A DNA stretch of 64,000 nt. Source: Clostridiales bacterium. GTDB taxonomy: Bacteria; Bacillota; Clostridia; TANB77; CAG-508. Below, piece by piece: positions 1,738 through 13,886 of this stretch (position 1 is its first letter; each line of letters starts with the position of its first letter). The DNA lies in assembly GCA_003507395.1 (NCBI GenBank), contig DNVW01000006.1, positions 98,249 through 162,248 on the forward strand. The letters are read 5' to 3'. The notes below the pieces were generated by a model. The model was not told the origin of the DNA, did no database searches, and saw only the letters and a program-made list of their open reading frames with translations. The translations under genes were made by a program, and so were the position numbers.

Positions 1738-1774
1738 TTGGTACGGAGATTTTGACAACAAAATTGACAAAAGT

Positions 1775-1825
1775 GTGAACAAAAGGACGGACTTTTTGTT
1801 CATAAAAGTCCGTCCTTTTGTTCAC
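1775..1825 (-). terminator. Perfect 22-bp-stem hairpin (palindromic repeat copy 1), likely terminator of the two-gene cassette
   Basis: GTGAACAAAAGGACGGACTTTT (1775-1796), loop TGTTCAT, AAAAGTCCGTCCTTTTGTTCAC (1804-1825). It overlaps the TAG stop of ORF 1825..2259 and is followed on the minus strand by a T-rich tract. Confidence 0.6.
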
Positions 1826-2259
1826 TATCTAAAAAATATATTTTTTATTTTGTTTACAAGTTTTTTTATTATTGACTCCTTATATTCAACAATAGAAAGA
1901 CTTTCTTGTGTAGGTTCTTTCTTCTTAAAAATTTCATTTGGATTAAATTGAACTTGTAAATATTCTTGATATCTTTTTTCATTTTTGGCATATACTTCTT
2001 TTAATCTTTTCTTTTCGTTTTCATCTTCACACCAATATTGTAAGTTAAGTAACGCAATAATACCTAAAGTTTCTTCTTTTAATTTTTGATTTTTTATAGG
2101 CACGTTTGGATTTATTCCTTTTATATAATTTGTATCCTTTTCTTCTCTAAAGAATTCTCTTAGTTTTTTTGGTATTTTATTTCTATGTTCATTACTTATT
2201 AATCCTAGAAATTCATCTACTTCAGAATATGCTTGTCTTGTGTTTATTGATACTCCCAT
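1825..2259 (-). CDS. Hypothetical charged helical protein, 144 aa (second gene of the cassette)
   Basis: ORF-track protein MGVSINTRQAYSEVDEFLGLISNEHRNKIPKKLREFF...LNLQYWCEDENEKKRLKEVY... Its ATG (2257-2259) directly abuts the TAA (2260-2262) of the upstream gene. No motif assignable by eye. Confidence 0.6.
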   Translation of the reverse strand: MGVSINTRQAYSEVDEFLGLISNEHRNKIPKKLREFFREEKDTNYIKGINPNVPIKNQKLKEETLGIIALLNLQYWCEDENEKKRLKEVYAKNEKRYQEYLQVQFNPNEIFKKKEPTQESLSIVEYKESIIKKLVNKIKNIFFR

Positions 2260-3480
2260 TTATTCAATTTCCACTCCTTTTGGTTCTCCACCTCTTTCAT
2301 TTGTTATTAATAGTTTGAAATTTTCCATCTGCGCATCCATCACTCCTGTTCTAGTTTTTTCTTCCGTTGTTTTTATAGCACTGGATAAAATAATATCTTC
2401 GTTGCTATGTTTTTCTATCATCGATACTAAATCTATTTTTTTATTTTCTCTAGCTGAATTTACAATTTGTTGCGGAGTTGGCAATTTGCCTGTTTCTCTT
2501 AACTGTTCTAAAGATTTATTATATTCATCTACTAATGACTTATATTTATCTATACCAATTCTACCAATTTCGTCACATAAATCTTCCATATATTTAGAAG
2601 AGTCTGGAAAATATAATGCATATTCTTTAGTTCCATTATCTATATTCATTTTTGAAAACAAATATTCGAAAAAAGCTCTCTTGTAAAAATCTTTTACTAT
2701 ACACCCGTTTTCAAAATCATCTTTTACATTTTCTAATTTGTCTAATTCATCATTTTGACCTGTAATAACACTCCAATGTAGTACTTGAGCTATATTCCTT
2801 TCATTGGCAACATCACGTATTGTTCGTCTAACTTCATCACTTGTATCAGATTTTATATAACCATCATCTTCTCTTGCTAACGATAAAGTTTCAGCAGTGT
2901 ATCTACCTTCTCTTATAAGTGCTTCATTTACAGCTTCTTTTAAATTACCTTGGAAAATGGTAACATTTAAATTTAATTTAGCTAGCTTATCTTTTTCTTC
3001 TAATGATAATGTTTCATATCTATCTTTATCTATTAAAATAGTAGCTTTATTAGATAAATTAACGTTTCCTTTTATTGCAGTATCAGTTGGAACTAGTGAG
3101 ACCATTTCAGATTGTTCTATTTGTTCTGCTAGTCCATCAATTATGGCACATGTTTTATCTGAAAAAGTATTGTTCATATCATCTGGAACTAAACCATTTA
3201 AAGACCATAATACCATAGAATTATAGTCAGAATTATATGGCACATATTGTTCTAAAGTTTTAGTATTTTCTTTACTAATCTTATTGATTTCATCCGGTTT
3301 AGTCCAATCTACTTCTTTTAATAAACCTTTCCTTCTTAATAAATCACGCATGGAGGTAGAAAACTCTGTATCTTTTTCTTTTCTCAGATACGGAACCGCA
3401 CTTATTGGACGTACTACTCCATCAACTGGAATGACATTGGTAGCCCTCACCAATGCTATATTCTTAATATCCATAAACAT
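2260..3480 (-). CDS. Hypothetical protein, 406 aa (first gene of the cassette), no recognisable family
   Basis: Long ORF with GGAGG upstream (AAAAAGGAGGGAATGTTTATG). N-terminal module ALVRATNVIPVDG...NSMVLWSLNGLVPDD...CAIIDG, then a highly charged helical C-terminal half. No Walker A, HTH or nuclease motif seen. Confidence 0.7.
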   Translation of the reverse strand: MFMDIKNIALVRATNVIPVDGVVRPISAVPYLRKEKDTEFSTSMRDLLRRKGLLKEVDWTKPDEINKISKENTKTLEQYVPYNSDYNSMVLWSLNGLVPDDMNNTFSDKTCAIIDGLAEQIEQSEMVSLVPTDTAIKGNVNLSNKATILIDKDRYETLSLEEKDKLAKLNLNVTIFQGNLKEAVNEALIREGRYTAETLSLAREDDGYIKSDTSDEVRRTIRDVANERNIAQVLHWSVITGQNDELDKLENVKDDFENGCIVKDFYKRAFFEYLFSKMNIDNGTKEYALYFPDSSKYMEDLCDEIGRIGIDKYKSLVDEYNKSLEQLRETGKLPTPQQIVNSARENKKIDLVSMIEKHSNEDIILSSAIKTTEEKTRTGVMDAQMENFKLLITNERGGEPKGVEIE

Positions 3481-3524
3481 TCCCTCCTTTTTATTACATA
3501 ATAATATTATTAAAAATATTATAT

Positions 3525-3553
3525 ATCATAATCGGGTGCAATATATTTGTCAA
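3525..3553 (-). promoter_or_regulatory. Near-consensus sigma-A promoter for the two-gene cassette
   Basis: On the minus strand: TTGACA (3548-3553), exactly 17 nt, then TATGAT (3525-3530), about 45 nt upstream of the 406-aa ORF start. Confidence 0.55.
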
Positions 3554-3601
3554 GTTTCTAAACAAAGGAGTGAACAAAAAGTCCGTCCTTTTGTTCACTA
3601 T
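3547..3601. repeat. Palindromic repeat copy 2 (deletion derivative of the 1775-1825 hairpin)
   Basis: GTGAACAAAAAGTCCGTCCTTTTGTTCAC (3570-3598) equals copy 1 minus its central 22 nt. The 25-mer AAAAGTCCGTCCTTTTGTTCACTAT is identical at 1804-1828 and 3577-3601. Looser similarity extends about 25 nt upstream. Confidence 0.65.
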
Positions 3602-3629
3602 TCACTGCTAATTGCTAAATTTGCACTTA

Positions 3630-3668
3630 TGGAGCGGTTAAGCTACAGCTTACGAACTACAATGCTCT
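3630..3668 (-). other. Possible degenerate tRNA-Thr-derived remnant
   Basis: On the plus strand, TGGAGC...CTACAGcTTACGAAc...GCTCT parallels the genuine tRNA at 7088-7140 (TGGAGC...CTACAGgTTACGAAt...GCTCT) in the same order and orientation. The T-arm is missing and the anticodon stem cannot pair. Confidence 0.3.
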
Positions 3669-3787
3669 CTTTCTAAAAACATTATATAGTAATTCCTATA
3701 TTTTTTCAAGGAAGCATGGGAATTTTTTGTAATTTATAGTATAATGTAATTGTATTATTCGCTGTAATTTATTGAAAGGAGAATAAA

Positions 3788-4192
3788 ATGATTTTTAACA
3801 AAGAGAATATTTTAAAAACACTAAATAAATATAATTTTGATTCACAAAATTATATAGTTATTAGTGGTGCAGCTTTAGTACTTCAAAATGTAAAAGAATA
3901 TACATCTGATATAGATATAACTGTTTCTAATGAATTATATAACCAATTATTAAAAAAATATAGTTGCACGTTTGAAAAAGAAATTGAAAATTATAATGTT
4001 TGGTTTATTGATAATATAATAAATTTTAGTAATCATTATTATGAAAAAATAGAATATATAGAATTATTCGGATATAAAGTACAAACAATAAAATCTGTAT
4101 TAAAATTAAAAAAGCAACTTAATCGTTCAAAAGATAAAAAAGACATTCAACACATTATGGATTTTTATAAAGATACAGACGAGGTTAAATAA
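3788..4192 (+). CDS. Small Pol-beta-superfamily nucleotidyltransferase-like protein (134 aa)
   Basis: The motif ISGAALVLQNVKEYTSDIDIT fits hG[GSA]x9-13DxD. The C-terminal ...LNRSKDKKDIQHI... recalls Lnu/ANT(2'')-type small NTases. An AGGAG RBS is present. Confidence 0.45.
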   Translation: MIFNKENILKTLNKYNFDSQNYIVISGAALVLQNVKEYTSDIDITVSNELYNQLLKKYSCTFEKEIENYNVWFIDNIINFSNHYYEKIEYIELFGYKVQTIKSVLKLKKQLNRSKDKKDIQHIMDFYKDTDEVK

Positions 4193-4212
4193 TAAATTAA
4201 CCTTGTTTTTTT
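4182..4212 (+). terminator. Rho-independent terminator of the NTase gene
   Basis: AGGTTAA / TTAACCT stem overlapping the stop codon, followed by TGTTTTTTT. Confidence 0.55.
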
Positions 4213-4381
4213 CTAGTTGCAATTTTTAAAAATTAAGGGGTTTGGGGATTTTCCCCATATAAGAATTTGTACGGGAGTATAAATTCAGTGCTGGCTAGAC
4301 ATTACTTTTACTCCCATATTGGTTAATATATAAAAAGAGGATTAAATTACTTTGCTAATTTTTTGCTCTTTTTTAAATTAT

Positions 4382-4735
4382 TTATATAAAAATATACTCT
4401 TTTAATATAATTTCTTCTGCTGTAATTTTATAATTATTCATAAGTTTTGCCCATTCAATATGATTTCTTTTTTTATTTTTTTCGAATAGTCTTTCATCTG
4501 ATTTTTTATAACTTTCCATCAAAGTATTTAATAAATCTTCTGAACTTTTACTTACTGAAATAAGATGATTAGTAAGTTCTTCTTTCATTAAAAGTGAAGT
4601 ATATAGTGCTTTTTTATATTCTTTTAAATAGGCTAATCTCATTCTTCCATATTTGTTTATAATTCCTTTTTTAGTTTCTTTTAAAGTTAAATCTGGCAAT
4701 AAATAATCTCCTTGTTTTGTATAAGTTATTTCCAT
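4382..4735 (-). CDS. tnpV: Transposon-encoded TnpV-family protein
   Basis: MEITYTKQGDYLLPDL...YGRMRLAYLKEYKKALYTSLL...WAKLMNNYKITAEEIILKEYI matches the TnpV pattern of Tn4451-type elements (from memory). It lies immediately downstream of the serine recombinase. Confidence 0.7.
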   Translation of the reverse strand: MEITYTKQGDYLLPDLTLKETKKGIINKYGRMRLAYLKEYKKALYTSLLMKEELTNHLISVSKSSEDLLNTLMESYKKSDERLFEKNKKRNHIEWAKLMNNYKITAEEIILKEYIFI

Positions 4736-4762
4736 AATAAAATCATTCCTTTCTTATTTTTA

Positions 4763-6553
4763 TTAAATATTTATAATTGTTTTTGGTATTAATAGTAGGT
4801 TATCTACTATGTTATTATCTTCAATATATGGACAATTTATAATTCCATCGTGAAAAAAATGTTGTTTTATTAGTTCCATATATAAAATCAAATCTGCTTC
4901 AGAATATTTATTATCTTCATATTTTTTTGTAGAAAATATGAAGTAATCTTGTTCTAATTTTTCTAATTCTTGCTTGTTGATTTGTTCTTTATATTTAATT
5001 CCAATTTCATTATTATTTAAAATTTCATTAAGATAATTTAAATATTCTTTATTACTTTTAGATATAAATTCATCTGTGAATTTTATATTTTTAATTTCAA
5101 TATTGTAATTTTTATCTCTTGTAATTTCTAAATTTGCTATTAATCTTTGTATTAATTCTTTCTTAGTTTTTCTATTTAAACTATCCCATAAAAATGAAAA
5201 TCCTAGTTTATTTTGAAATAAAATATTGTTATCATCTTGATAATCACAATCTAATTTTTTAAGTAATTCTACTGTATAATCTTTAAAGTCATCATCTGGA
5301 TCTAGTTTGTTTTTCTTTTGGTTTAGTTTATCTATTTCTTTTTTTATTACTTCATTTTTGTGGTTAATTACTTCAACATTTAGGGTAGAACTTAAATATA
5401 AATCTACTAACTTTTTCTCTTGTTGTTTTAATTTTTCAATAGCATTATCTATGTCTTTAATCTCTTTAGTTTTAGTAGAATTACAAACTATAATTTCATT
5501 ATCTGCATCATACATATATCTAGTTAATTCATTTAAAATACGTCCTAGTTTTTGTTCTATTTTATCTGAACTATAATGAAGTCCTTTTGATTTACAATTA
5601 GCATTTTTACAAGTCAAATGATAATAAACTTTTTCTTTTTCAGTTCCACTATTTTTAAAAGAATTAGTAGAAGAAAGTATTACACCACAATCTGGACACT
5701 TAACTATTGAAGTAAATAAATGAATATGTTCTCCATAATTAGAGTGTTTATTTTTCTCTAAATTTGCTCTTGTAACATTCCAAGTTTGTTCATCAATAAT
5801 AGGTTCACAATAGTTATTAACTCTTAAAACGTCTTGTGGTTTTCTTTTATATTTTCCATATTCAAATACACCTATATAAATAGAATTAGTTAATATTTTA
5901 TAGACTCGGTCACTTCGCCATTTACCTTGTTTCAAGTATGAATTATTATCTTTCATAATACTTGCTATGTTTCTTGTAGAATGTCCTTTTTTACATAGTT
6001 CAAATATTTCTTTAACTACTTGTGCCTCAATAGGTTCTATCTCTAAATGTCCTGTTTCTTTGTTTCTAATATAGCCATATGGTGCTTTACTAGGGTGTAT
6101 TTTAGATAATGCCATTTCTTCCATAGCTCGTTTAGTTCTTGCTCCAATTTCTTTTCTTTCTCTTTGCCCAAATACTAAATTCATTCCAAATATCATTTCA
6201 CCATTAGCAGTAGATACATCATAAGGTTCTAGTATTAATTCAATTTTTACATCGTGTTGTTCACAATAATTAAGTAGCCAAAAACCATCATAATTATTTC
6301 TAGTTAATCTATCTACTTTAATTGCAACTAATTTATCTATCTTTTTAGATTTAATATCTTTTAATAATCTTTGCATTTCAGGTCTCATTAAATCTTTTCC
6401 AGAATGTCCTGCATCATTATAGACATCAACTATTAAATAGTAGTTTTTCTCACAATATTCTTTAATCATTCTTAATTGTGAATCAATAGAATAACCATTA
6501 TCTCTTTGATCATCTGTGCTAACTCTTACATATACTGCACATCTATTACTCAT
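4763..6553 (-). CDS. Large serine recombinase (TnpX/TndX/phage-integrase type)
   Basis: N-terminal resolvase catalytic motif AVYVRVSTDDQ, a recombinase domain, a Cys-rich zinc ribbon (CPDCG...C..NC) and a long coiled-coil C-terminus. 596 aa. Confidence 0.9.
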   Translation of the reverse strand: MSNRCAVYVRVSTDDQRDNGYSIDSQLRMIKEYCEKNYYLIVDVYNDAGHSGKDLMRPEMQRLLKDIKSKKIDKLVAIKVDRLTRNNYDGFWLLNYCEQHDVKIELILEPYDVSTANGEMIFGMNLVFGQRERKEIGARTKRAMEEMALSKIHPSKAPYGYIRNKETGHLEIEPIEAQVVKEIFELCKKGHSTRNIASIMKDNNSYLKQGKWRSDRVYKILTNSIYIGVFEYGKYKRKPQDVLRVNNYCEPIIDEQTWNVTRANLEKNKHSNYGEHIHLFTSIVKCPDCGVILSSTNSFKNSGTEKEKVYYHLTCKNANCKSKGLHYSSDKIEQKLGRILNELTRYMYDADNEIIVCNSTKTKEIKDIDNAIEKLKQQEKKLVDLYLSSTLNVEVINHKNEVIKKEIDKLNQKKNKLDPDDDFKDYTVELLKKLDCDYQDDNNILFQNKLGFSFLWDSLNRKTKKELIQRLIANLEITRDKNYNIEIKNIKFTDEFISKSNKEYLNYLNEILNNNEIGIKYKEQINKQELEKLEQDYFIFSTKKYEDNKYSEADLILYMELIKQHFFHDGIINCPYIEDNNIVDNLLLIPKTIINI

Positions 6554-6710
6554 AAAATCATCTCCTCACTTCTTTCCAAACTAAAACGGAAAATAACAAC
6601 CAATTTTTGAAAATTTCTTTCAATTGTTTCCTAAATAGTTTTAATTTTTGCAACCCTAAACTAAAAATATCTCTCATTTGTTTCCTCTTTAAATAATAAA
6701 ATTGCAGACA

Positions 6711-6995
6711 CTAATTTGATAATTTTATGATAATTTGTTTGATTTCTTTGAGATTGTATTTCTCATTATGCTCTTTAATGTAGAATGGTTTATTTCTAAT
6801 CTCATTAACTTTGTATTCTAGTATTGTAAGAATAGTAGGATATGTAATTATGTACTCTATAGGTTCAACAAATTGCAGATTTGTTTTCAGTAAGTGTTTA
6901 ACTTTACCATTTTTAGTTATGTAAGTGTAGCTTTTGATGATTTCTAGAATTTCAGTATTTGGTTTTAATTCTTGTATTATTTTGAATTCAAGCAT
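6711..6995 (-). CDS. Hypothetical protein (94 aa) upstream of the recombinase
   Basis: ORF track only. No motif recognised. Same strand as the recombinase. Confidence 0.35.
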   Translation of the reverse strand: MLEFKIIQELKPNTEILEIIKSYTYITKNGKVKHLLKTNLQFVEPIEYIITYPTILTILEYKVNEIRNKPFYIKEHNEKYNLKEIKQIIIKLSN

Positions 6996-7087
6996 AAAAA
7001 ATGTTCTCCTTTCTAGAAAGAAAACATTATAGTTTTATATAAAATAAAAACTTACGATACTATATTGGTTCGTAAGTTGTTTTCAAA

Positions 7088-7163
7088 TGGAGCTACTGGG
7101 CAGAATCGAACTGCCGACCTACAGGTTACGAATCTGTTGCTCTACCAACTGAGCTACAGTAGC
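7088..7163 (-). tRNA. tRNA-Thr (anticodon CGU), CCA encoded
   Basis: The reverse complement folds as a cloverleaf: acceptor GCTACTG/CAGTAGC, D stem GCTC/GAGC, anticodon loop TTCGTAA, T stem GGCAG/CTGCC with loop TTCGATT. 76 nt. Confidence 0.9.
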
Positions 7164-7262: not shown

Positions 7263-8828
7263 TTAGAAATGTTTACCTTTTTTTCTTTTTGTGTCTTCTT
7301 TTTCTTCTTCTTCCTCATAATAATTATTTTCGCTATTTGTTATTTCTTCTTCTTTTCCAAAATTCTCTAAATATTCTTTTTTATTTTGTTCCTTTTCATT
7401 TCCTATAGTATTTTCTTCATTTTTTTCATCTGTAAAGTCTTGTTTATCTTTTTTTGCTTTTGCTTTATCTCTTTTTATTATTTTTAATAAAATGATTAAG
7501 CTTATTATTCCTGCTATAATATAAAATATTTCTTTAGCAGAAATTTTAGGAAATATACTTTGTTTTTCTTCTTGTGCAATTTTTTTATCTACTGTTATTT
7601 GATATGTTGTTGTTTCATTTGTTTTGCTTGATTTAACTAATATTGTTATTACATTTTCTCCATCTTTTAAATTTTTGTTTCCTAATACTTCTACTATTGC
7701 ATCTTCATCATTTGTTGTAGCATTTACAATTAACTCTGTTATTTCTTTATTTTCTAATGTTGCTACATAGTCAAATATATCTGGTGAAAATGCAGGATTT
7801 AAATTAATATTTTCTATTGTTAAGGTTGCTAATCTTAAACTAGATGTAGCAGTAGCTTTTTCTTTTGTCGCTGTTATTATATATGTTCTAATAGTTCCAT
7901 CTTCTGCTGTTACAGCTATTTTTATTACATTGTCTCCTTCAACCAATTTATCATTTCCTGTTATTTGGACTTTAGCTTTACTATCTTCTGCCTCTGCTTT
8001 AATTTCTAATTTTTCTATATTATTTGCAATTTTTATTGTGTAATCTGTAACATCTTTTTTAAATTCTGGAGTTAGTCCTTCTGGTTTTACTTCTAATTTA
8101 GATAAATTTTTATTTGTTGATTTTTCTTCTTTTGCTGGTGTCTCTACTGGTTTTTCTTCTACTGGTTTTGTTGTTGTCAAATATTCGCTATATATATATC
8201 CTGTTGAACCATTAAATGTTACTTTGCTCCAACCATTGTCTCCTTTACCTATACGTGTAACACTTTTTCCTTTTTCTAAAGAGCCTAATATACCACTACT
8301 CGTAGACCAACTTTTTCTAACATTTACTTCTGTAGTTGCATATACGGTTTCATTTACAGATGTAAATTTAGGCTCTGTTGGTGTAGGCATTGGTGTGCTT
8401 CCACCTGAAGATGTATTTTTAGTTTTTACTGTAACAGTTGCTGTTGCCGATGAAGATGCTACAGAACCACCATCAGCATTTTCCATATCTTTTGAAACAA
8501 ATACTACTTTGTAAGTAGTATCTTTACTTACTGTTGGTGTTTTAAATTTATATGTGGCTATTCCATTTGTTATATTTTCTGCCTTCGCAAATGCTACTAA
8601 TGTTCCATTTACTGTACCTCCTGTTACACTTTCTAATGTTAAGCCTCCATTAGATGTAACATCAATTGCACCATTAGCTACAGGTTCTTGGCTACTGATT
8701 GTTATTGTTGCTGTTTCCCCTGAATAAACTGTAGGATCTGTTGTAATAATTCTTGCTTGTGAAGACGTACATAACCCTATTAAAATTAAAATTCCAAAAA
8801 TAAAAATAAATTTAATCTTTTTAATCAT
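7263..8828 (-). CDS. Secreted, membrane-anchored cell-surface protein (SH3b + cadherin-like beta-sandwich repeats)
   Basis: Signal peptide, an SH3b-like block (VNVRKSWSTSSGILGSL...GWSKVTFNGSTGYIYSEYL), two repeats of the L..L.V..G.L.P.F..D...Y type, a C-terminal TM helix and a charged tail. Confidence 0.7.
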   Translation of the reverse strand: MIKKIKFIFIFGILILIGLCTSSQARIITTDPTVYSGETATITISSQEPVANGAIDVTSNGGLTLESVTGGTVNGTLVAFAKAENITNGIATYKFKTPTVSKDTTYKVVFVSKDMENADGGSVASSSATATVTVKTKNTSSGGSTPMPTPTEPKFTSVNETVYATTEVNVRKSWSTSSGILGSLEKGKSVTRIGKGDNGWSKVTFNGSTGYIYSEYLTTTKPVEEKPVETPAKEEKSTNKNLSKLEVKPEGLTPEFKKDVTDYTIKIANNIEKLEIKAEAEDSKAKVQITGNDKLVEGDNVIKIAVTAEDGTIRTYIITATKEKATATSSLRLATLTIENINLNPAFSPDIFDYVATLENKEITELIVNATTNDEDAIVEVLGNKNLKDGENVITILVKSSKTNETTTYQITVDKKIAQEEKQSIFPKISAKEIFYIIAGIISLIILLKIIKRDKAKAKKDKQDFTDEKNEENTIGNEKEQNKKEYLENFGKEEEITNSENNYYEEEEEKEDTKRKKGKHF

Positions 8829-8840
8829 TTGTTTATCTCC

Positions 8841-11006
8841 TTATATTGATATATTGTTAAGGCCTACATAAGCTCTTAGAATTGTTGTTGAATCCGCAGG
8901 TGTTACTTTTCCATCATTATTTGTGTCTGCTGCTACTGTTGCTTCACCTGATAAGTTGACTAAACCTACGTATGCTCTTAAAATTATTGTTGAGTCTGCT
9001 GGTGTTACTTTTCCATCGCAATTTGAATCACCTTTAACTGCTATTATATAATCTTTTCCATCTATAGATATTTTATACCCTGTTGTTAAATTTCCTGTTG
9101 TTATGGTTGTATTGTCTTTTTTTATTACCGCATCACTATATGTAGCTTTAACTTTTTCTACTGTAGTATTTGGTATACATACAAAATTTGTATTTACTAT
9201 TTTAAAATCTTTTGAAGTAGTTGGATTGCTTGGTGATACTGGCTCTATATTTTGTTCATTTCCGCCTGCTCTTGCAGCATAACCTATAATACCACTTCCA
9301 GTTACAACCTTATCCCAAGTATATCCATCTTTTGTAGAAGCCGCTTTTTGTGTTCTTGTTAATATTGTACCTTTTTCTACTATTGTTAGGCATTTCGAAT
9401 TTATTCCTGGGCTTTCTCTAATTTTTAATCCATATTCACATACTACTTTAACTAACTCATTTCCAGATGTATCTGAGCCATCTGTTACAGTATTAAGATA
9501 TTTGTTAGCTAAATAGCCTTGTGTTCCATCACTTAATTTTACTCTATCCCAATCATATCCATTTAACCCATTATATTTACCCTTTTCTATTACAGTTACA
9601 GCCTGTCCTTCTGTTAATGTTGTAATAATTGTAGTATCTGTTGTACCTGGGCCATTTCTTAAATTAACATCTGTATTTGCTATAGCTTTTTCGTTGCAAT
9701 TTGTTATATCATCTACTTGCTTTAAATAATTTGATGTTATATATCCTTTAGTTCCATTTGCTAATACAACCTTATCCCACCTATTTCCACCTTCACTCGA
9801 TGCTCCTATTTCTATTCTTAATATTTTAGTTCCTACATTTAAGTTTCCTAAACTTTTAGCAGTAGATTTAGGCTCTTGTCTTACTGTAACAGTTGAATTA
9901 ATTATTTCTACATTTTGTGTCACTATAGTCTTGCTTCCTGGATAACGGCATTTTTCTTTTGGCATATTTTCATATACTGGTATTAAAAAATTAAATGGTA
10001 CTTCATTAGAAGAATTAACAAATCCCATTTTTTGATAAGTAGATTTCACTGTTTCTCCTTCTGTTTTAGCTGCAGATACATTTTGCATATATTGATGATA
10101 ATACAGCTCTGTTTCATAATCGTCTACAACATCAAATTTTTGTAAGTATAATGTACTTTGTCCATATTTTATATATTCTTTTGCTAAAAATTCGGCTCCT
10201 CCATAAATTGCTTTTTCTGGGGTTGTCCATCCTTTGTTTTTAGCATATTGTAATCCATTTGCCATAATATCGTCGCCAGTTGCTCCAATATTAAAGAAAT
10301 TATAGTAACCTCTATATGTTGAATTATAATTTCCAAAAACCATTTCTGTACCTGTCGTTCCTTGCTCTTGCACTATCCTACTAGCCAAATGATATGGGCT
10401 AATATTATATTTTTTCCCTGCCTCCATTAATACTTGAGCATATGATTTATTTATTGTTGCTTTTTTGCCTTCTGTTGTCATATATTCTATTTTATTGCCC
10501 TGTAAATATTGGCAATTAGCAAGAATTGTATTAACTCCATTTATTGTATGTAAGTCTTCATTATATCCTAATTCTTCAAATTGAAATATGTAGTCTTCGT
10601 ATAGAAAGTTTCTAGGATCCATATAATATGCTACTGCTGTTTCTGAAGCACCCTTCCATCTTCCTTCATCATATGTTTTTTTATTTGCTTCACAATATGC
10701 ACAAAGCCATTCTCCTGTTCTAGTCGCTGGTACTAAATTTCTAGCATGTTCTTCTGTTGTCTCGTTTTTTAAAACTTGGTTCCAATCTAGTCCTGTAAAA
10801 AATATAGTAAATGTCCATGTTGGGTGTTGTTCTTTTAGGTTATTAATTAATTCTGTATATCCAGGATAGTTTGATAATTTAGTAGTTTTGCTTTCTGGTT
10901 CTTTGTATTGTGCTGCTTTAACTTCTATTGACAAAAAATTTATAATTAAGACTAATAACATTATTATTATAATAGTAATACTTATTAATTTAGATAATTT
11001 TTTCAA
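8841..11006 (-). CDS. Cell-wall hydrolase: N-acetylglucosaminidase (GH73-like) + three SH3b repeats + dockerin-like C-terminus
   Basis: Signal/TM N-terminus; YHLASRIVQEQG...YNFFNIGA glucosaminidase block; repeated SH3b segments; duplicated DxNxDGKVTPADST.ILRAYVGL segments at the C-terminus. Confidence 0.75.
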   Translation of the reverse strand: MKKLSKLISITIIIIMLLVLIINFLSIEVKAAQYKEPESKTTKLSNYPGYTELINNLKEQHPTWTFTIFFTGLDWNQVLKNETTEEHARNLVPATRTGEWLCAYCEANKKTYDEGRWKGASETAVAYYMDPRNFLYEDYIFQFEELGYNEDLHTINGVNTILANCQYLQGNKIEYMTTEGKKATINKSYAQVLMEAGKKYNISPYHLASRIVQEQGTTGTEMVFGNYNSTYRGYYNFFNIGATGDDIMANGLQYAKNKGWTTPEKAIYGGAEFLAKEYIKYGQSTLYLQKFDVVDDYETELYYHQYMQNVSAAKTEGETVKSTYQKMGFVNSSNEVPFNFLIPVYENMPKEKCRYPGSKTIVTQNVEIINSTVTVRQEPKSTAKSLGNLNVGTKILRIEIGASSEGGNRWDKVVLANGTKGYITSNYLKQVDDITNCNEKAIANTDVNLRNGPGTTDTTIITTLTEGQAVTVIEKGKYNGLNGYDWDRVKLSDGTQGYLANKYLNTVTDGSDTSGNELVKVVCEYGLKIRESPGINSKCLTIVEKGTILTRTQKAASTKDGYTWDKVVTGSGIIGYAARAGGNEQNIEPVSPSNPTTSKDFKIVNTNFVCIPNTTVEKVKATYSDAVIKKDNTTITTGNLTTGYKISIDGKDYIIAVKGDSNCDGKVTPADSTIILRAYVGLVNLSGEATVAADTNNDGKVTPADSTTILRAYVGLNNISI

Positions 11007-11120
11007 TTATTACACCTCATTTGTTATATTTCGACAAATAAAGTATAGCATTTTTGTTCTTTTTAGTCAATTATTATAAATAAAAAGTAATATAATTGTA
11101 ATAATATTTAACATATGTAA

Positions 11121-11156
11121 AAAAGGTGAAGATCATATGTATAATTTTCACCTTTT
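11121..11156 (-). terminator. Terminator downstream of the 45-aa Cys-rich ORF
   Basis: AAAAGGTGAA...TTCACCTTTT stem with a 16-nt loop. A T-run follows on the minus strand. Confidence 0.5.
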
Positions 11157-11181
11157 CCTATTTTATTTTGAGTTATATGTT

Positions 11182-11319
11182 CTATCTACAGCAACATCCA
11201 AAGTTAGTAAATAATAGTAAAAATACTATTATAAAAAATAATATTGTATTATCGCTCCCATTACATCCGCATCCTCCAAATATTCCGTTGTTGCAACCAC
11301 AATTTCTATCGTCTTGCAT
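11182..11319 (-). CDS. Small Gly/Cys-rich membrane peptide (45 aa), YjcZ-like sporulation-type protein
   Basis: Manual translation: MQDDRNCGCNNGIFGGCGCNGSDNTILFFIIVFLLLFTNFGCCCR. GGAGG RBS 7 nt upstream and a terminator downstream. It is below the ORF-track size cutoff, and the overlapping plus-strand ORF 11126..11338 looks spurious. Confidence 0.6.
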   Translation of the reverse strand: MQDDRNCGCNNGIFGGCGCNGSDNTILFFIIVFLLLFTNFGCCCR

Positions 11320-11455
11320 TTTTTTACCTCCTTTTTAAATTTTTACTTACAATTCAAATGTATTTTTTGAACTGTAATTATTTTATAAATTTACTTATAT
11401 AATATTAGTATGCAAAACTTAAAATTTGTGTTACAATAACAGCGGAGGTTTTTAT

Positions 11456-13886
11456 ATGAGTAAAATTGAATTATTATCTCCGGTTGGAGATTGGAATTGC
11501 TTATTGGCAGCTGTTCAAAACGGTGCAGATAGTGTATATTTTGGATCAACACTTTTTAATGCTAGAGCTTCTGCAAATAATTTTGATATACCCACTTTAA
11601 AAAAAGCAATTGAATATTGTAAATTAAGAAATGTTAAAACATTTCTTACATTAAATATTCTAATTAAAAACGCTGAATTTAATGATGCCATAATATTAGC
11701 TAAAAAAGCTTACGAATTTGGAATTGATGCAATAATTGTGCAGGATCTTGGTCTTGCAAGATTCTTAATAAAAAACTTTCCAGACTTACCTATTCACGCT
11801 AGTACGCAAATGTCTATTCATAATTTAGAAGGAGTTTTAAAATTACAAAATCTAGGTTTTAAAAGAGTAGTACTTGCTCGCGAATTACCAATAAACGAAA
11901 TTCAGTACATATGCAAAAATACAAATATAGAAATTGAAACTTTTATTCATGGTGCTTTATGTATTTCATATTCTGGTCAATGTTTATTTTCTAGCATAAT
12001 TGGTGGAAGATCTGGTAATAGAGGCAAATGTGCTGGTCCTTGTAGATTGCCTTATGAATTATTACTTCATAATGATAATTCAAATAAAGATACTCTTCTT
12101 GATAAAGGATACTTATTAAGTCCAAAGGATTTATGTAGCCTTAATTATTTGCCACAGCTTATTGAAGCAGGAGTAAAATGTTTTAAAATAGAAGGTAGAC
12201 TAAAAAGTCCTGAATATGTGGCAGTAGTTACTAAAATATATAGAAAATATATAGACAAAATATTGAATAAAGAAAATTATGTGGTGGAAGATTCGGATAT
12301 GCAACAATTGTTGCAAATGTTTAATAGAGGTCGGTTTCTCAGATGGGCACCTATCAGATTTACCTAATAAAGACTTAATCTTTAAAGAAAGACCTAATAA
12401 TATTGGCTTGTATCTTGGAAATATTAGTAAGTTTAATAGTGCAAAAGGTCACATTACTTTAACTTTAAATGAAGATTTAGCTATTGGTGATACAATTTAT
12501 ACAGAAAATGAAAGTGTGAAATATACTGTTTCTGAATTAATGCAAAAAACCTTAAATCTTTCAGAAGCTCAAAGTGGCATGAAGGTAACTATTGGAAGAA
12601 TGAAAGGTAATATAGCTGTTGGAGATAAAGTATACAAATTAACTAGCAAAAATTTACTAAACTCTGCTAGACTTTCTTATACTAATTGTGAAAATAGGAA
12701 AATAAACATTAATGCAAATGTAATTGTAAAAAAAGGCACACCTATTAGTATGTCTATTAACTATAATAATAAACTTATCACTTCAACCACAAATGTTATT
12801 CCATCTCCTGCTCTCACACAACCTATTACAGCCGACAGAATTATAAAACAGATTTCTAAAACATCTAATACTCCTTTTAATTTTAAAACAATCAATGTTC
12901 AACTTGATGATGGTTTATTCATCCCTAATATTAGTGTTTTAAATGAATTAAGAAGAAATATTCTTGACAAGTTGCAAAATACTATAATATCTGAAAATGT
13001 TAGAACTTCTAGCTTAAATATTGATAATATTCAACAGCCATATGATATTGCTGAAAACCAAACATTAAAAAACAAAAAAATATCTGTTTTATTACGTAAT
13101 ATAAATCCTAAATTTGATTATACAAATTTAGATTTTAAAAATATTAATAATTTATACATTCCATTAAAAAGTTTTATTAGCAAAAACTTAAAGGAAACTT
13201 TATCTTACTTATCTGACAATATAAACACTTATATTTACTTACCTTCTGTCATAAAAAACAATTATAAAAATATAATAAAGAACTATTTAGAAGATATAAT
13301 AAAAAAATATAAAATAAAAGGATTTGTTATTTCAAATTTATCTAATTTAAAGTTCCTTGAAAAATACACAGATGATTTTGAAATTGTTGGCAATTCATCT
13401 TTAAATATCTTTAATAATTTTTCAATAAAGGAATGTGTTGAATATGGTATAAACAGAGTAACTTTATCCCGAGAATTAAGTAAAGCAGAATTAGATGACA
13501 TTCTTAAATACAATCTTAATGTAGATACAGAATTAATTGTTTATGGCACTTTGCCTATAATGTCTTGCAATTATTGTTTCTTAGGCAAATCTAATATGTG
13601 CTACCCTGAATGTAAAGCACTATGTTCGGATAATAATTCATATTATTTAAAAGATCGATTAGGATTTAAATTTAGAATAATTCCAGATAAAATACAATCA
13701 ATAACATCTATATTTAATAGCAAAATATTATCTATCCCGACTAAAACTTTAAATATTTCATCTGTCAGAATAGATATTTTAGATGAAAATATATCAGAAA
13801 TAAATAAAATTGTTGCAATTGTAAAAAGCGGTAAAACTTTAGAAGGAAAGAACTATACAACAGGAAGACTAGAAGAAGAAAAATAA
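11456..13886 (+). pseudogene. U32-family peptidase (collagenase-like), split by a +1 frameshift near 12332
   Basis: ORFs 11426..12367 and 12279..13886 overlap in different frames. Reading ...LQMFNRG then GFSDGHLSDL... restores one protein if the C at 12332 is skipped. The true start MSKIELLSPVGDW is at 11456, after GGAGG. Confidence 0.75.

Follow-up and report, generated by a model that had tools for sequence, protein, structure and literature searches.

A 64,000-nucleotide (nt) stretch of DNA from a Clostridiales bacterium (the window; assembly GCA_003507395.1, contig DNVW01000006.1, positions 98,249 to 162,248 of the forward strand) contains, beside a tRNA-Thr gene, two adjoining genes without family or name, which we call A and B. 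By the signals that can be read around them, A and B form an autonomous 1.7-kb transcription unit, with a sigma-70-type promoter of its own, two translationally coupled genes and a strong terminator, and by its substitution rates this cassette has passed between AT-rich gut Clostridia since the hosts themselves diverged. The explanation that we favour, tentatively and at somewhat less than an even chance, is that of an integrase-less cassette at a tRNA hot spot that carries a 'tail plus binder' module, probably a toxin-antitoxin (TA)-like one. B, a small, basic, helical protein, would bind the acidic, disordered carboxyl-terminal tail of whichever protein is translated immediately ahead of it; through its labile acidic tail, A would hold the conserved basic B in check, and loss of the cassette or of A would release B, as in a type II TA or addiction-like system; the core of A would have an activity of its own, independent of B. 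A TA-like mechanism in particular would be the most likely one, held with less confidence than the combined reading. It draws on the gene order, the coupling, an acidic, disordered and fast-evolving tail set against a conserved, basic, folded B, a partner that consists of a tail only, mobility, and occasional TA or abortive infection (Abi) genes nearby.

The A-B transcription unit and its products

Gene A, on the minus strand (as is B), occupies 2260..3474 (404 amino acids [aa]) or 2260..3480 (406 aa), depending on the start codon. The true start is probably the ATG at 3474, because GGAGG stands 9 nt upstream of it (3 nt for 3480) and most database versions of the protein have 404 aa; aligned homologues of A begin at the third residue of the longer window protein, with MDIKN or a close variant. 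The stop codon of A (TAA, 2262-2260) is followed immediately by the start codon of B (ATG, 2259-2257), which occupies 1825..2259 and encodes 144 aa; the isoelectric points (pI) of the two products are 4.9 for A and 9.3 for B. Upstream of A, on the same strand, lies TTGACA-17-TATGAT (3525..3553), which agrees with the sigma-70 consensus at 11 of 12 positions. The original prediction, which was made from the letters of the window, had described the open reading frames, their exact abutment and this near-consensus promoter, and all three held.

Terminator-like hairpins, both scoring as such on the minus (coding) strand, stand at the two ends of the unit. The distal one (1775..1825) is a perfect 22-bp stem with a 7-nt loop and a folding energy of -36 kcal/mol (z = -9.3; equalled by none of 200 shuffles); it begins at B's stop codon, the very point at which homology to other species breaks off (1824/1825), and serves both as the terminator of the A-B operon and as the distal copy of a flanking repeat. 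The proximal one (3569..3599) is partial, with a 13-bp stem (-16.5 kcal/mol, z = -2.7), and lies 8 nt beyond the block that is homologous to the closest other species (L047; the loci compared are given here by L numbers) and approximately 30 nt downstream of a degenerate tRNA-Thr fragment. The sequence bears out the earlier description of the upstream copy as the hairpin shortened by 22 nt (29 nt out of 51 nt); because the hairpin is palindromic, the same copy is equally a perfect 28-nt inverted copy of 1775-1802. A 25-nt direct repeat is exact, as had been claimed, at 1804..1828 (plus strand, including the TAG stop codon of B) and at 3577..3601 (plus strand), with zero matches expected by chance, and it has an inverted copy with two mismatches at 1772-1796. 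The 22-nt arm of the repeat was found in the metagenome collection at this locus only (two contigs, three matches each), which disposes of the possibility, raised in the original prediction, that the repeat is scattered genome-wide, and we ruled out a genome-wide element or miniature inverted-repeat transposable element on the same ground. In strain L005 the downstream hairpin carries five substitutions, none of which restores pairing, indicating that the perfect palindrome is not tightly constrained.

A foreign base composition was likewise ruled out: in a window with 27% G+C, A and B are like the background, and the genes of the neighbouring island described below are more AT-rich. The 5' leader of the unit (3481-3524) contains a perfect 12-bp AT palindrome (AATAATATTATT), and the stretch AATATTATTATGTAATAAA within it is kept in L047; either could be an operator, or a chance product of an AT-rich genome. 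Searches of the region for known RNA families returned sub-threshold matches to generic hairpins and nothing more.

None of the relatives of A (365 in a word-indexed search; 274 clusters at 50% identity in a full scan with a hidden Markov model) is named or has a Pfam domain, and individual scans of 54 diverse homologues gave noise only. Pfam, NCBIfam, PADLOC and PHROGs held nothing useful for A, for B, for the 54 homologues, for fused forms or for the alternative upstream partners of B, so that the earlier failure to recognize a P-loop, helix-turn-helix (HTH), nuclease or peptidase family stands; the Protein Data Bank (PDB), searched by sequence and by profile, gave nothing credible for A or B. 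The AlphaFold model of A (predicted local distance difference test [pLDDT] 81.7, predicted template modelling [pTM] score 0.76) has a conserved alpha/beta domain (residues approximately 1-200), a helical domain (approximately 214-345) and a tail of pI 5.1, in which most of residues 364-406 fall below a pLDDT of 50. Foldseek found nothing significant for this model in the PDB (best E = 0.12), and its best match in BFVD was a crAss-like phage protein (E 2.6e-3, TM score 0.2). No recombinase or nuclease fold was found in A by Foldseek, no DNA-binding domain by Pfam or Foldseek, and no Pfam match to a transposase or recombinase at E values up to 1 (Y1_Tnp, OrfB_IS605, DEDD, and tyrosine and serine recombinases). 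Across the broad family R12, P18, N95, G96, S143, G178, A183, L188 and G309 are nearly invariant and N321 is invariant, with no obvious acid/base catalytic set among the conserved residues.

Two more specific identities were considered for A and rejected. An R-S-E-like pattern had suggested an ADP-ribosyltransferase, but DarT (7omw) matched the model only at a Foldseek E of 2.9 (TM scores 0.21/0.40), and the glutamate in question, E125, is N, Q, K or D in homologues. A VRAT motif had suggested a serine recombinase, but the hhalign probability against the catalytic domains is 0.1% and Pfam gave no Resolvase match. Some relatives of A reach approximately 705 aa through an HExxH domain inserted ahead of the tail; in L034 this domain occurs as a gene of its own, two genes upstream of A (E = 3e-34). 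One further homologue, P0050 (on a 4.4-kb ENA contig), is a clean chimera, in which residues 1-215 match P0085 at 99-100% identity and residues 215-412 match the window protein at 100%, and which is either real recombination between lineages or an artefact of metagenome assembly.

The model of B (pLDDT 80.5) is a five-helix bundle (residues 5-110), a disordered linker (pLDDT <50 at 116-126) and a basic carboxyl-terminal helix (129-142). It has no fold match by Foldseek (best E = 4.2) and none in the PDB by sequence (best E = 0.53), and the best of its matches in Pfam, NCBIfam, PADLOC and PHROGs, none of them credible, was to KCU-star (NCBIfam; 19.7 bits against a cut-off of 85). Because neither profile nor structure searches gave a family or fold, the description of the pair as undescribed stands. 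A query of the L025 type collected 680 B-like matches; the 120 that were listed are all stand-alone, unnamed proteins of 109-162 aa, mostly 141-162 aa. A supposed fusion of B-like domains to XRE HTH domains was not borne out, all 120 listed relatives being stand-alone.

The tail of A and its co-variation with B

A homologue of B follows A immediately and is translationally coupled to it in 11 distinct contexts (fused forms included), as would be expected of the discrete two-gene module that had been proposed; L020 and L023 are clear exceptions. Elsewhere A occurs by itself: homologues of 356-357 aa (approximately 41-46% identical, in metagenome-assembled genomes labelled Bacilli, Firmicutes or Muribaculaceae) have neither the tail nor B, and A homologues without B have no adjoining tRNA. 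The part of A that goes with B would thus be the acidic carboxyl-terminal tail (residues 346-406, 2263..2445 on the minus strand), and B co-varies with it. Over 12 A-B pairs (66 comparisons) the identity of B correlates with that of the tail at a Spearman coefficient of 0.88 and with that of the A core at 0.39, in a statistic that ignores shared ancestry; in L012, for example, a core of 77% identity goes with a tail of 6% and a B of 33%. Ratios of nonsynonymous to synonymous substitution rates (dN/dS) are 0.23-0.38 in the core of A, rise to 0.39-0.79 in the tail and are 0.14-0.31 in B, indicating that the tail evolves faster than B.

In all readable contexts B-like genes lie downstream of a translationally coupled gene (with junctions, in A-B and B-like pairs alike, that abut or overlap by 1 nt or 8 nt), and it is the upstream partner that varies. 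It belongs to the A family in the window and its relatives, and is a 392-aa Cys-containing protein in L048, a 404-aa HEFAH protein in L051, a 385-aa HELIH protein in L053 (an IMG/VR contig), a 130-aa protein in L054 and a peptide of only 41 aa in L057. By eye, a similar charged tail with the core motif hydrophobic-x-[S/N/G]-A-[I/L] is present in five of these six partner types, L053 being the one that does not have it. Since B co-varies with the tail and similar tails stand on unrelated partners, we infer that B binds the tail, and that the tail and B together may be a portable unit attached to unrelated upstream proteins.

Two of these contexts deserve description in their own right. In L053 (672-2296) the HELIH protein is followed by a B-like gene of 150 aa on a small contig, the sole match from a viral collection, on which there are genes that we took to be inovirus coat genes from their appearance. 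In L051 (79-6444) the HEFAH/B-like pair is clustered with AbiEii, a radical SAM protein and two paralogues of approximately 150 aa (68% identical), followed by a split serine recombinase. TA or Abi neighbours are thus present at some loci, with PhdYeFM/ParE in L043 and AbiEii in L051.

Exchange of the cassette and its tRNA contexts

The evidence for exchange comes from synonymous divergence. Compared with L039, L041/42 and L047, A and B have a synonymous substitution rate (dS) of 0.22-0.49 and a third-position identity of 0.75-0.88, and the syntenic U32, dockerin and cadherin-like genes on the same contigs have a dS of 0.71-1.13 and a third-position identity of 0.51-0.58; the dS of the cassette is thus two to four times below that of its flanks, indicating horizontal exchange. 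Homology to relatives begins 10-80 nt ahead of the ATG of A and ends at the stop codon of B, and the two repeat copies adjoin this homologous block at distances of 8 nt and 0 nt, so that the cassette is indeed bracketed by repeats, as the original prediction had it.

A tRNA gene on the same strand lies upstream of the cassette in five independent contexts, and in four of them the distance is 24-49 nt. It is tRNA-Thr (CGT) in the lineage of the window; tRNA-Thr (GGT) after a sigK-like gene in L009, L018 and L022 (24-25 nt); tRNA-Thr (GGT) after a sigH-like gene in L012, where the promoter is shared with L047 and the window; tRNA-Gly (TCC) after bofA in L015 (24 nt); and tRNA-Arg (CCT) in L025. 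The upstream sigma genes, which we named by reading their sequences, are presumably sigK-like in one lineage and sigH-like in another. A link to sporulation or to sigma factors was considered and dropped, because the two sigma genes are about 30% identical and their adjacency is therefore treated as coincidental. In several of these loci A starts 24-49 nt past the 3' end of the tRNA with no terminator between them (L009 9900-10001, L015 8344-8442, L018 and L022 5907-6007, and L017 177-302), which implies tRNA-mRNA co-transcripts there; in four loci the ribosome-binding site begins within approximately 15 nt of the tRNA end.

Flanking direct repeats are present in other lineages too. In L043 the repeat is 61 nt at 82% identity, with a hairpin inside it and a tRNA-Thr-like fragment just ahead of the distal copy; in L025 it is 68 nt at 71% identity, with the tRNA-Arg 3' end copied after each repeat unit, exactly (23 nt) after the proximal one and in degenerate form after the distal one. 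Also in L025 (5643-5790 and 7823-7925) we noted a unit of approximately 105 nt that contains the complement of the tRNA-Arg T arm and a hairpin, repeats the tRNA 3' end exactly for a second time, and has no Rfam match. We read the flanking repeats as probable attachment (att)-like or terminator duplications at the hot spot, and not as a dispersed element.

At the window's own locus the anchor of the hot spot is tRNA-Thr (CGT) at 7088..7163 (minus strand), and the gene order in the species is U32 peptidases, an SH3/dockerin protein, a cadherin-like protein, tRNA-Thr, a 94-aa open reading frame (ORF), a serine recombinase, TnpV, DUF6036, A, B and ftsY. All 24 contigs read for this species have this one arrangement, and the protein is indexed in 1567 blocks of the collection. 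In L047, whose A is 84% identical, the order is tRNA-Thr, a terminator, 38 bp, a promoter (TTGACA-17-TATAAT), A and B, with no recombinase. Because homology to L047 is confined to 7105-7027 and 3561-3470, the 3.5 kb between (3562..7026, minus strand) are an insert, and the alignment thus identifies a serine-recombinase island as an insertion separate from the cassette, between it and the tRNA. The original prediction had placed the module inside an accessory island next to a recombinase; the promoter, A and B in fact lie outside the inserted stretch, and the upstream repeat copy lies inside its final 40 nt. The island contains the 94-aa ORF (6711-6995, minus strand), a large serine recombinase of 596 aa (4763-6553, minus strand), TnpV (4382-4735, minus strand) and a DUF6036 nucleotidyltransferase (3788-4192, plus strand), and would have come later than the cassette. 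Searched against plasmids with blastn, it had no match. In strain L002 the annotated recombinase is shorter (527 aa, against 596 aa), possibly through decay.

Presence of the cassette at the tRNA-Thr locus was checked in four related lineages (L017, L039, L041/42 and L047), and it was found in all four, an outcome that the original prediction had itself named as counting against it. What stands between tRNA and cassette differs: in L017 A lies 49 nt past the tRNA, without a recombinase; in L039 a Bro-N gene separates the two; and in L041 a different serine-recombinase/Mob_Pre/CitMHS element occupies the same spot, its recombinase 27% identical to that of the window and its A 75%. Degenerate remnants of tRNA-Thr accompany the cassette: a 3' fragment with the anticodon loop and acceptor end at 3630..3659 (minus strand) in the window, its equivalent upstream of A in L039 (approximately 9945-9975), and a degenerate 3' fragment downstream of B in L043 (2875-2919). 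We read them as possible relics of repeated integration or of an older tRNA-cassette junction.

In four of approximately 17 distinct contexts (the window, L041, L048 and L051) the cassette or a B-like pair has a large serine recombinase within 5 kb, which we take as a sign of variable regions, not of carriage. Related serine-recombinase/Mob_Pre/106-aa elements stand directly upstream of a tail-bearing gene and B-like gene in the distant lineages L048 (169-6453) and L041 (4656-10737), with identities of 38% for the serine recombinase, 61% for Mob_Pre and 31% for the 106-aa protein. On the other side of the tRNA (window 7263-13886), the SH3/dockerin protein (721 aa) and the cadherin-like protein (521 aa) have only 33-44% identity with the syntenic proteins of L039 and L041, against 73% for the N-terminal part of the adjacent U32 peptidase, indicating that these surface proteins evolve fast. 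U32 genes recur a few kilobases from A in six lineages.

Competing explanations and known systems

The layout of the locus, taken by analogy, matches that of an integrase-less element with retained att sites, or cis-mobilizable element (CIME), followed by accretion of a later element; CIMEs and tandem accretion at att sites, in which the older integrase-less element is displaced from the tRNA, have been described (PMC5704250). Several observations nevertheless weigh against a TA-like cassette at a tRNA hot spot. On the side of mobility, a search for the tRNA 3' end past the end of B found no repeat of it in L009, L015, L017, L018 or L022, the distal repeat of the window has no tRNA part, and all contigs read for the species have the cassette at one fixed place; neither A nor B had a match among 50,697 phage genomes and 72,556 plasmids. 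Long direct repeats are not a known product of serine recombinases, so that the agent behind them would not be in the window. On the side of mechanism, neither protein shows a toxin or antitoxin family, fold or catalytic signature, and A has no DNA-binding domain and, at 404 aa, is far above the usual size of an antitoxin. The co-variation of tail and B is, moreover, uncorrected for shared ancestry, and it is only by a short motif and by position that the tails of different partner types can be called homologous.

An explanation of the same genes in which the roles are reversed, with A and the other upstream proteins as toxic effectors and B as a promiscuous antitoxin, immunity protein or chaperone that grips their common tail, seems to us unlikely. 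In its favour, HExxH motifs occur in two kinds of partner and a third contains Cys (none of the three matched a known family), and such domains are common in effectors; many different upstream proteins share one conserved partner, and the dN/dS of A is raised (0.27-0.38). The Panacea-domain antitoxins (PanAT), paired with many unrelated toxins, supply a precedent (PMC8832971). Against these stand the several lineages that hold A cores without tail or B, indicating that A is not toxic by itself there; the tail-only partners of 41 aa and 130 aa, which offer nothing to neutralize; the nearly invariant residues of A (R, N, S, N, G and P), which include no acid/base catalytic set; and the absence of a match to Panacea or to any immunity family in the family searches. 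To an ordinary cellular module we give a similarly low probability. Here A would be a housekeeping or niche enzyme, or a structural protein, B an adaptor that localizes, stabilizes or delivers A by way of the tail, and the tRNA a source of transcription through the co-transcript. Fixation in the species, a background-like composition and absence from phages and plasmids are all what one would expect of such a module, as are the core-gene neighbours at several loci (sigK, BofA, Obg, YchF and SecG), the recurrence of U32 genes nearby and the ribosome-binding sites within approximately 15 nt of the tRNA end at four loci. A folded domain followed by a linker and a short conserved carboxyl-terminal helix is, moreover, a layout found among adaptor proteins, which B by this analogy might be. 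It is the dS of A-B, far under that of the flanking genes, together with the four different tRNAs in unrelated contexts, the flanking direct repeats in three lineages, the patchy distribution and the large serine recombinases in 4 of approximately 17 contexts, that this explanation does not accommodate.

The two remaining explanations make the cassette mobile in other ways, and both appear to us very improbable. The context of the window had suggested an anti-phage defence or toxin-immunity system carried as cargo by the adjacent serine-recombinase element, and a recombinase does lie 1.3 kb upstream on the same strand, with others beside A-B or B-like pairs in L041, L048 and L051. The cassette stands at the tRNA without any recombinase in L047 and L017, however, and L047, where the island is empty, contradicts such carriage directly; the recombinases of the window and L041 are 27% identical, against 75% for their A proteins. 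With regard to defence, neither A nor B nor the one B-like protein tested matched a family in PADLOC-DB v2, the alternative partners gave only two weak matches there (E 0.007 and 0.014; not credible), and the phage and plasmid searches above offered no positive evidence. From the original interpretation, then, a discrete, bracketed, exchanged and undescribed cassette survives; delivery by the recombinase island does not, and for a defence role no evidence was found. If instead the cassette were itself a minimal mobile element, to which we attach very little weight, A would be an unrecognized recombinase or transposase, B a small basic DNA-binding helper and the end hairpins recognition sites, as in IS200/IS605. 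Its size (1.7-2.1 kb), its pair of genes, the hairpins or repeats at either end of it, the place of A by the tRNA, where an integrase would usually be, and the basic B would all suit such an element; an acidic A (pI 4.9) with no match to a recombinase family or fold (hhalign 0.1%), a single fixed copy in the species, and A homologues that, when without B, do not stand beside tRNAs would not.

Returning to the favoured explanation, an integrase-less cassette with a probably TA-like tail and binder, we would extend it in one respect that is bolder and that we consider doubtful, namely that the cassette exemplifies a new class of tiny, integrase-less, tRNA-flanking mobile cassettes, in which an acidic tail of approximately 40-60 aa, attachable to any upstream protein, and a dedicated basic binder of 145-155 aa make the host dependent on the tagged protein or control it, with the 345-aa core of A as a new fold and enzyme family of gut Firmicutes. 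The families of A and B comprise hundreds of clusters in human and animal gut Firmicutes, with neither a name nor a known family or fold. Should B bind a transferable tail, the pair would be a simple natural 'tag plus binder' system, and a new node in combinatorial TA networks that is attached to enzymes instead of DNA-binding domains. The locus also shows cleanly how insertions are layered at a tRNA hot spot, here in uncultured Clostridia, in a layout that recurs at four different tRNAs.

Among known systems, the insertion sequence (IS) family IS200/IS605 resembles the cassette in size (approximately 1.8 kb), in its genes of approximately 400 aa and 150 aa and in hairpins near both ends, but there is no relation in sequence or fold to TnpA (Y1 HUH) or TnpB (RuvC-type), A is acidic and the copy is single and fixed; IS605 is not known to make direct repeats, which the cassette has. 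Tn4451 and Tn4453 are like the island only, in having a TnpX-type large serine recombinase followed by TnpV; the island differs from them in having neither Mob/TnpZ nor a resistance gene and no match in plasmid DNA, and A-B lies outside it. Polymorphic toxin-immunity systems likewise swap enzyme-like domains modularly beside a small partner gene, but the polarity of the cassette is reversed (variable amino terminus, conserved carboxyl-terminal tail), A has no trafficking or secretion domain, and the partner B is conserved and not toxin-specific.

The closest resemblances are to CIMEs for the locus and to type II TA systems for the genes. Like a CIME (PMC5704250), the cassette lies by a tRNA 3' end with no integrase or transfer gene inside it and with direct repeats on both sides, which may be att sites, and as in CIME accretion a probably later element stands between the tRNA and an older cassette and would have left a decayed tRNA fragment; unlike a CIME, it is only 1.7 kb and two genes long, its distal repeat has no tRNA part, the incoming recombinase is a serine and not a tyrosine recombinase, and it is fixed in the species, with no presence/absence variation among strains (24 contigs). 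With type II TA systems it shares a bicistronic, translationally coupled arrangement, in which the upstream protein has an acidic, disordered carboxyl terminus and the downstream one is small, basic and folded, and with the combinatorial TA networks PanAT and NetFlax in particular (PMC8832971, PMC10440598) the retention of one component while its partner is swapped, mobility and a hot-spot location. It departs from them in that A and B belong to no known toxin or antitoxin family or fold, in that A has 404 aa, two globular domains and no DNA-binding domain, and in that what is conserved is a short tail, which unrelated proteins carry. A member of no known toxin, antitoxin, defence, IS or recombinase family, the cassette would, by these analogies, come closest in its working to a type II TA pair, one that sits on a CIME-like relic.

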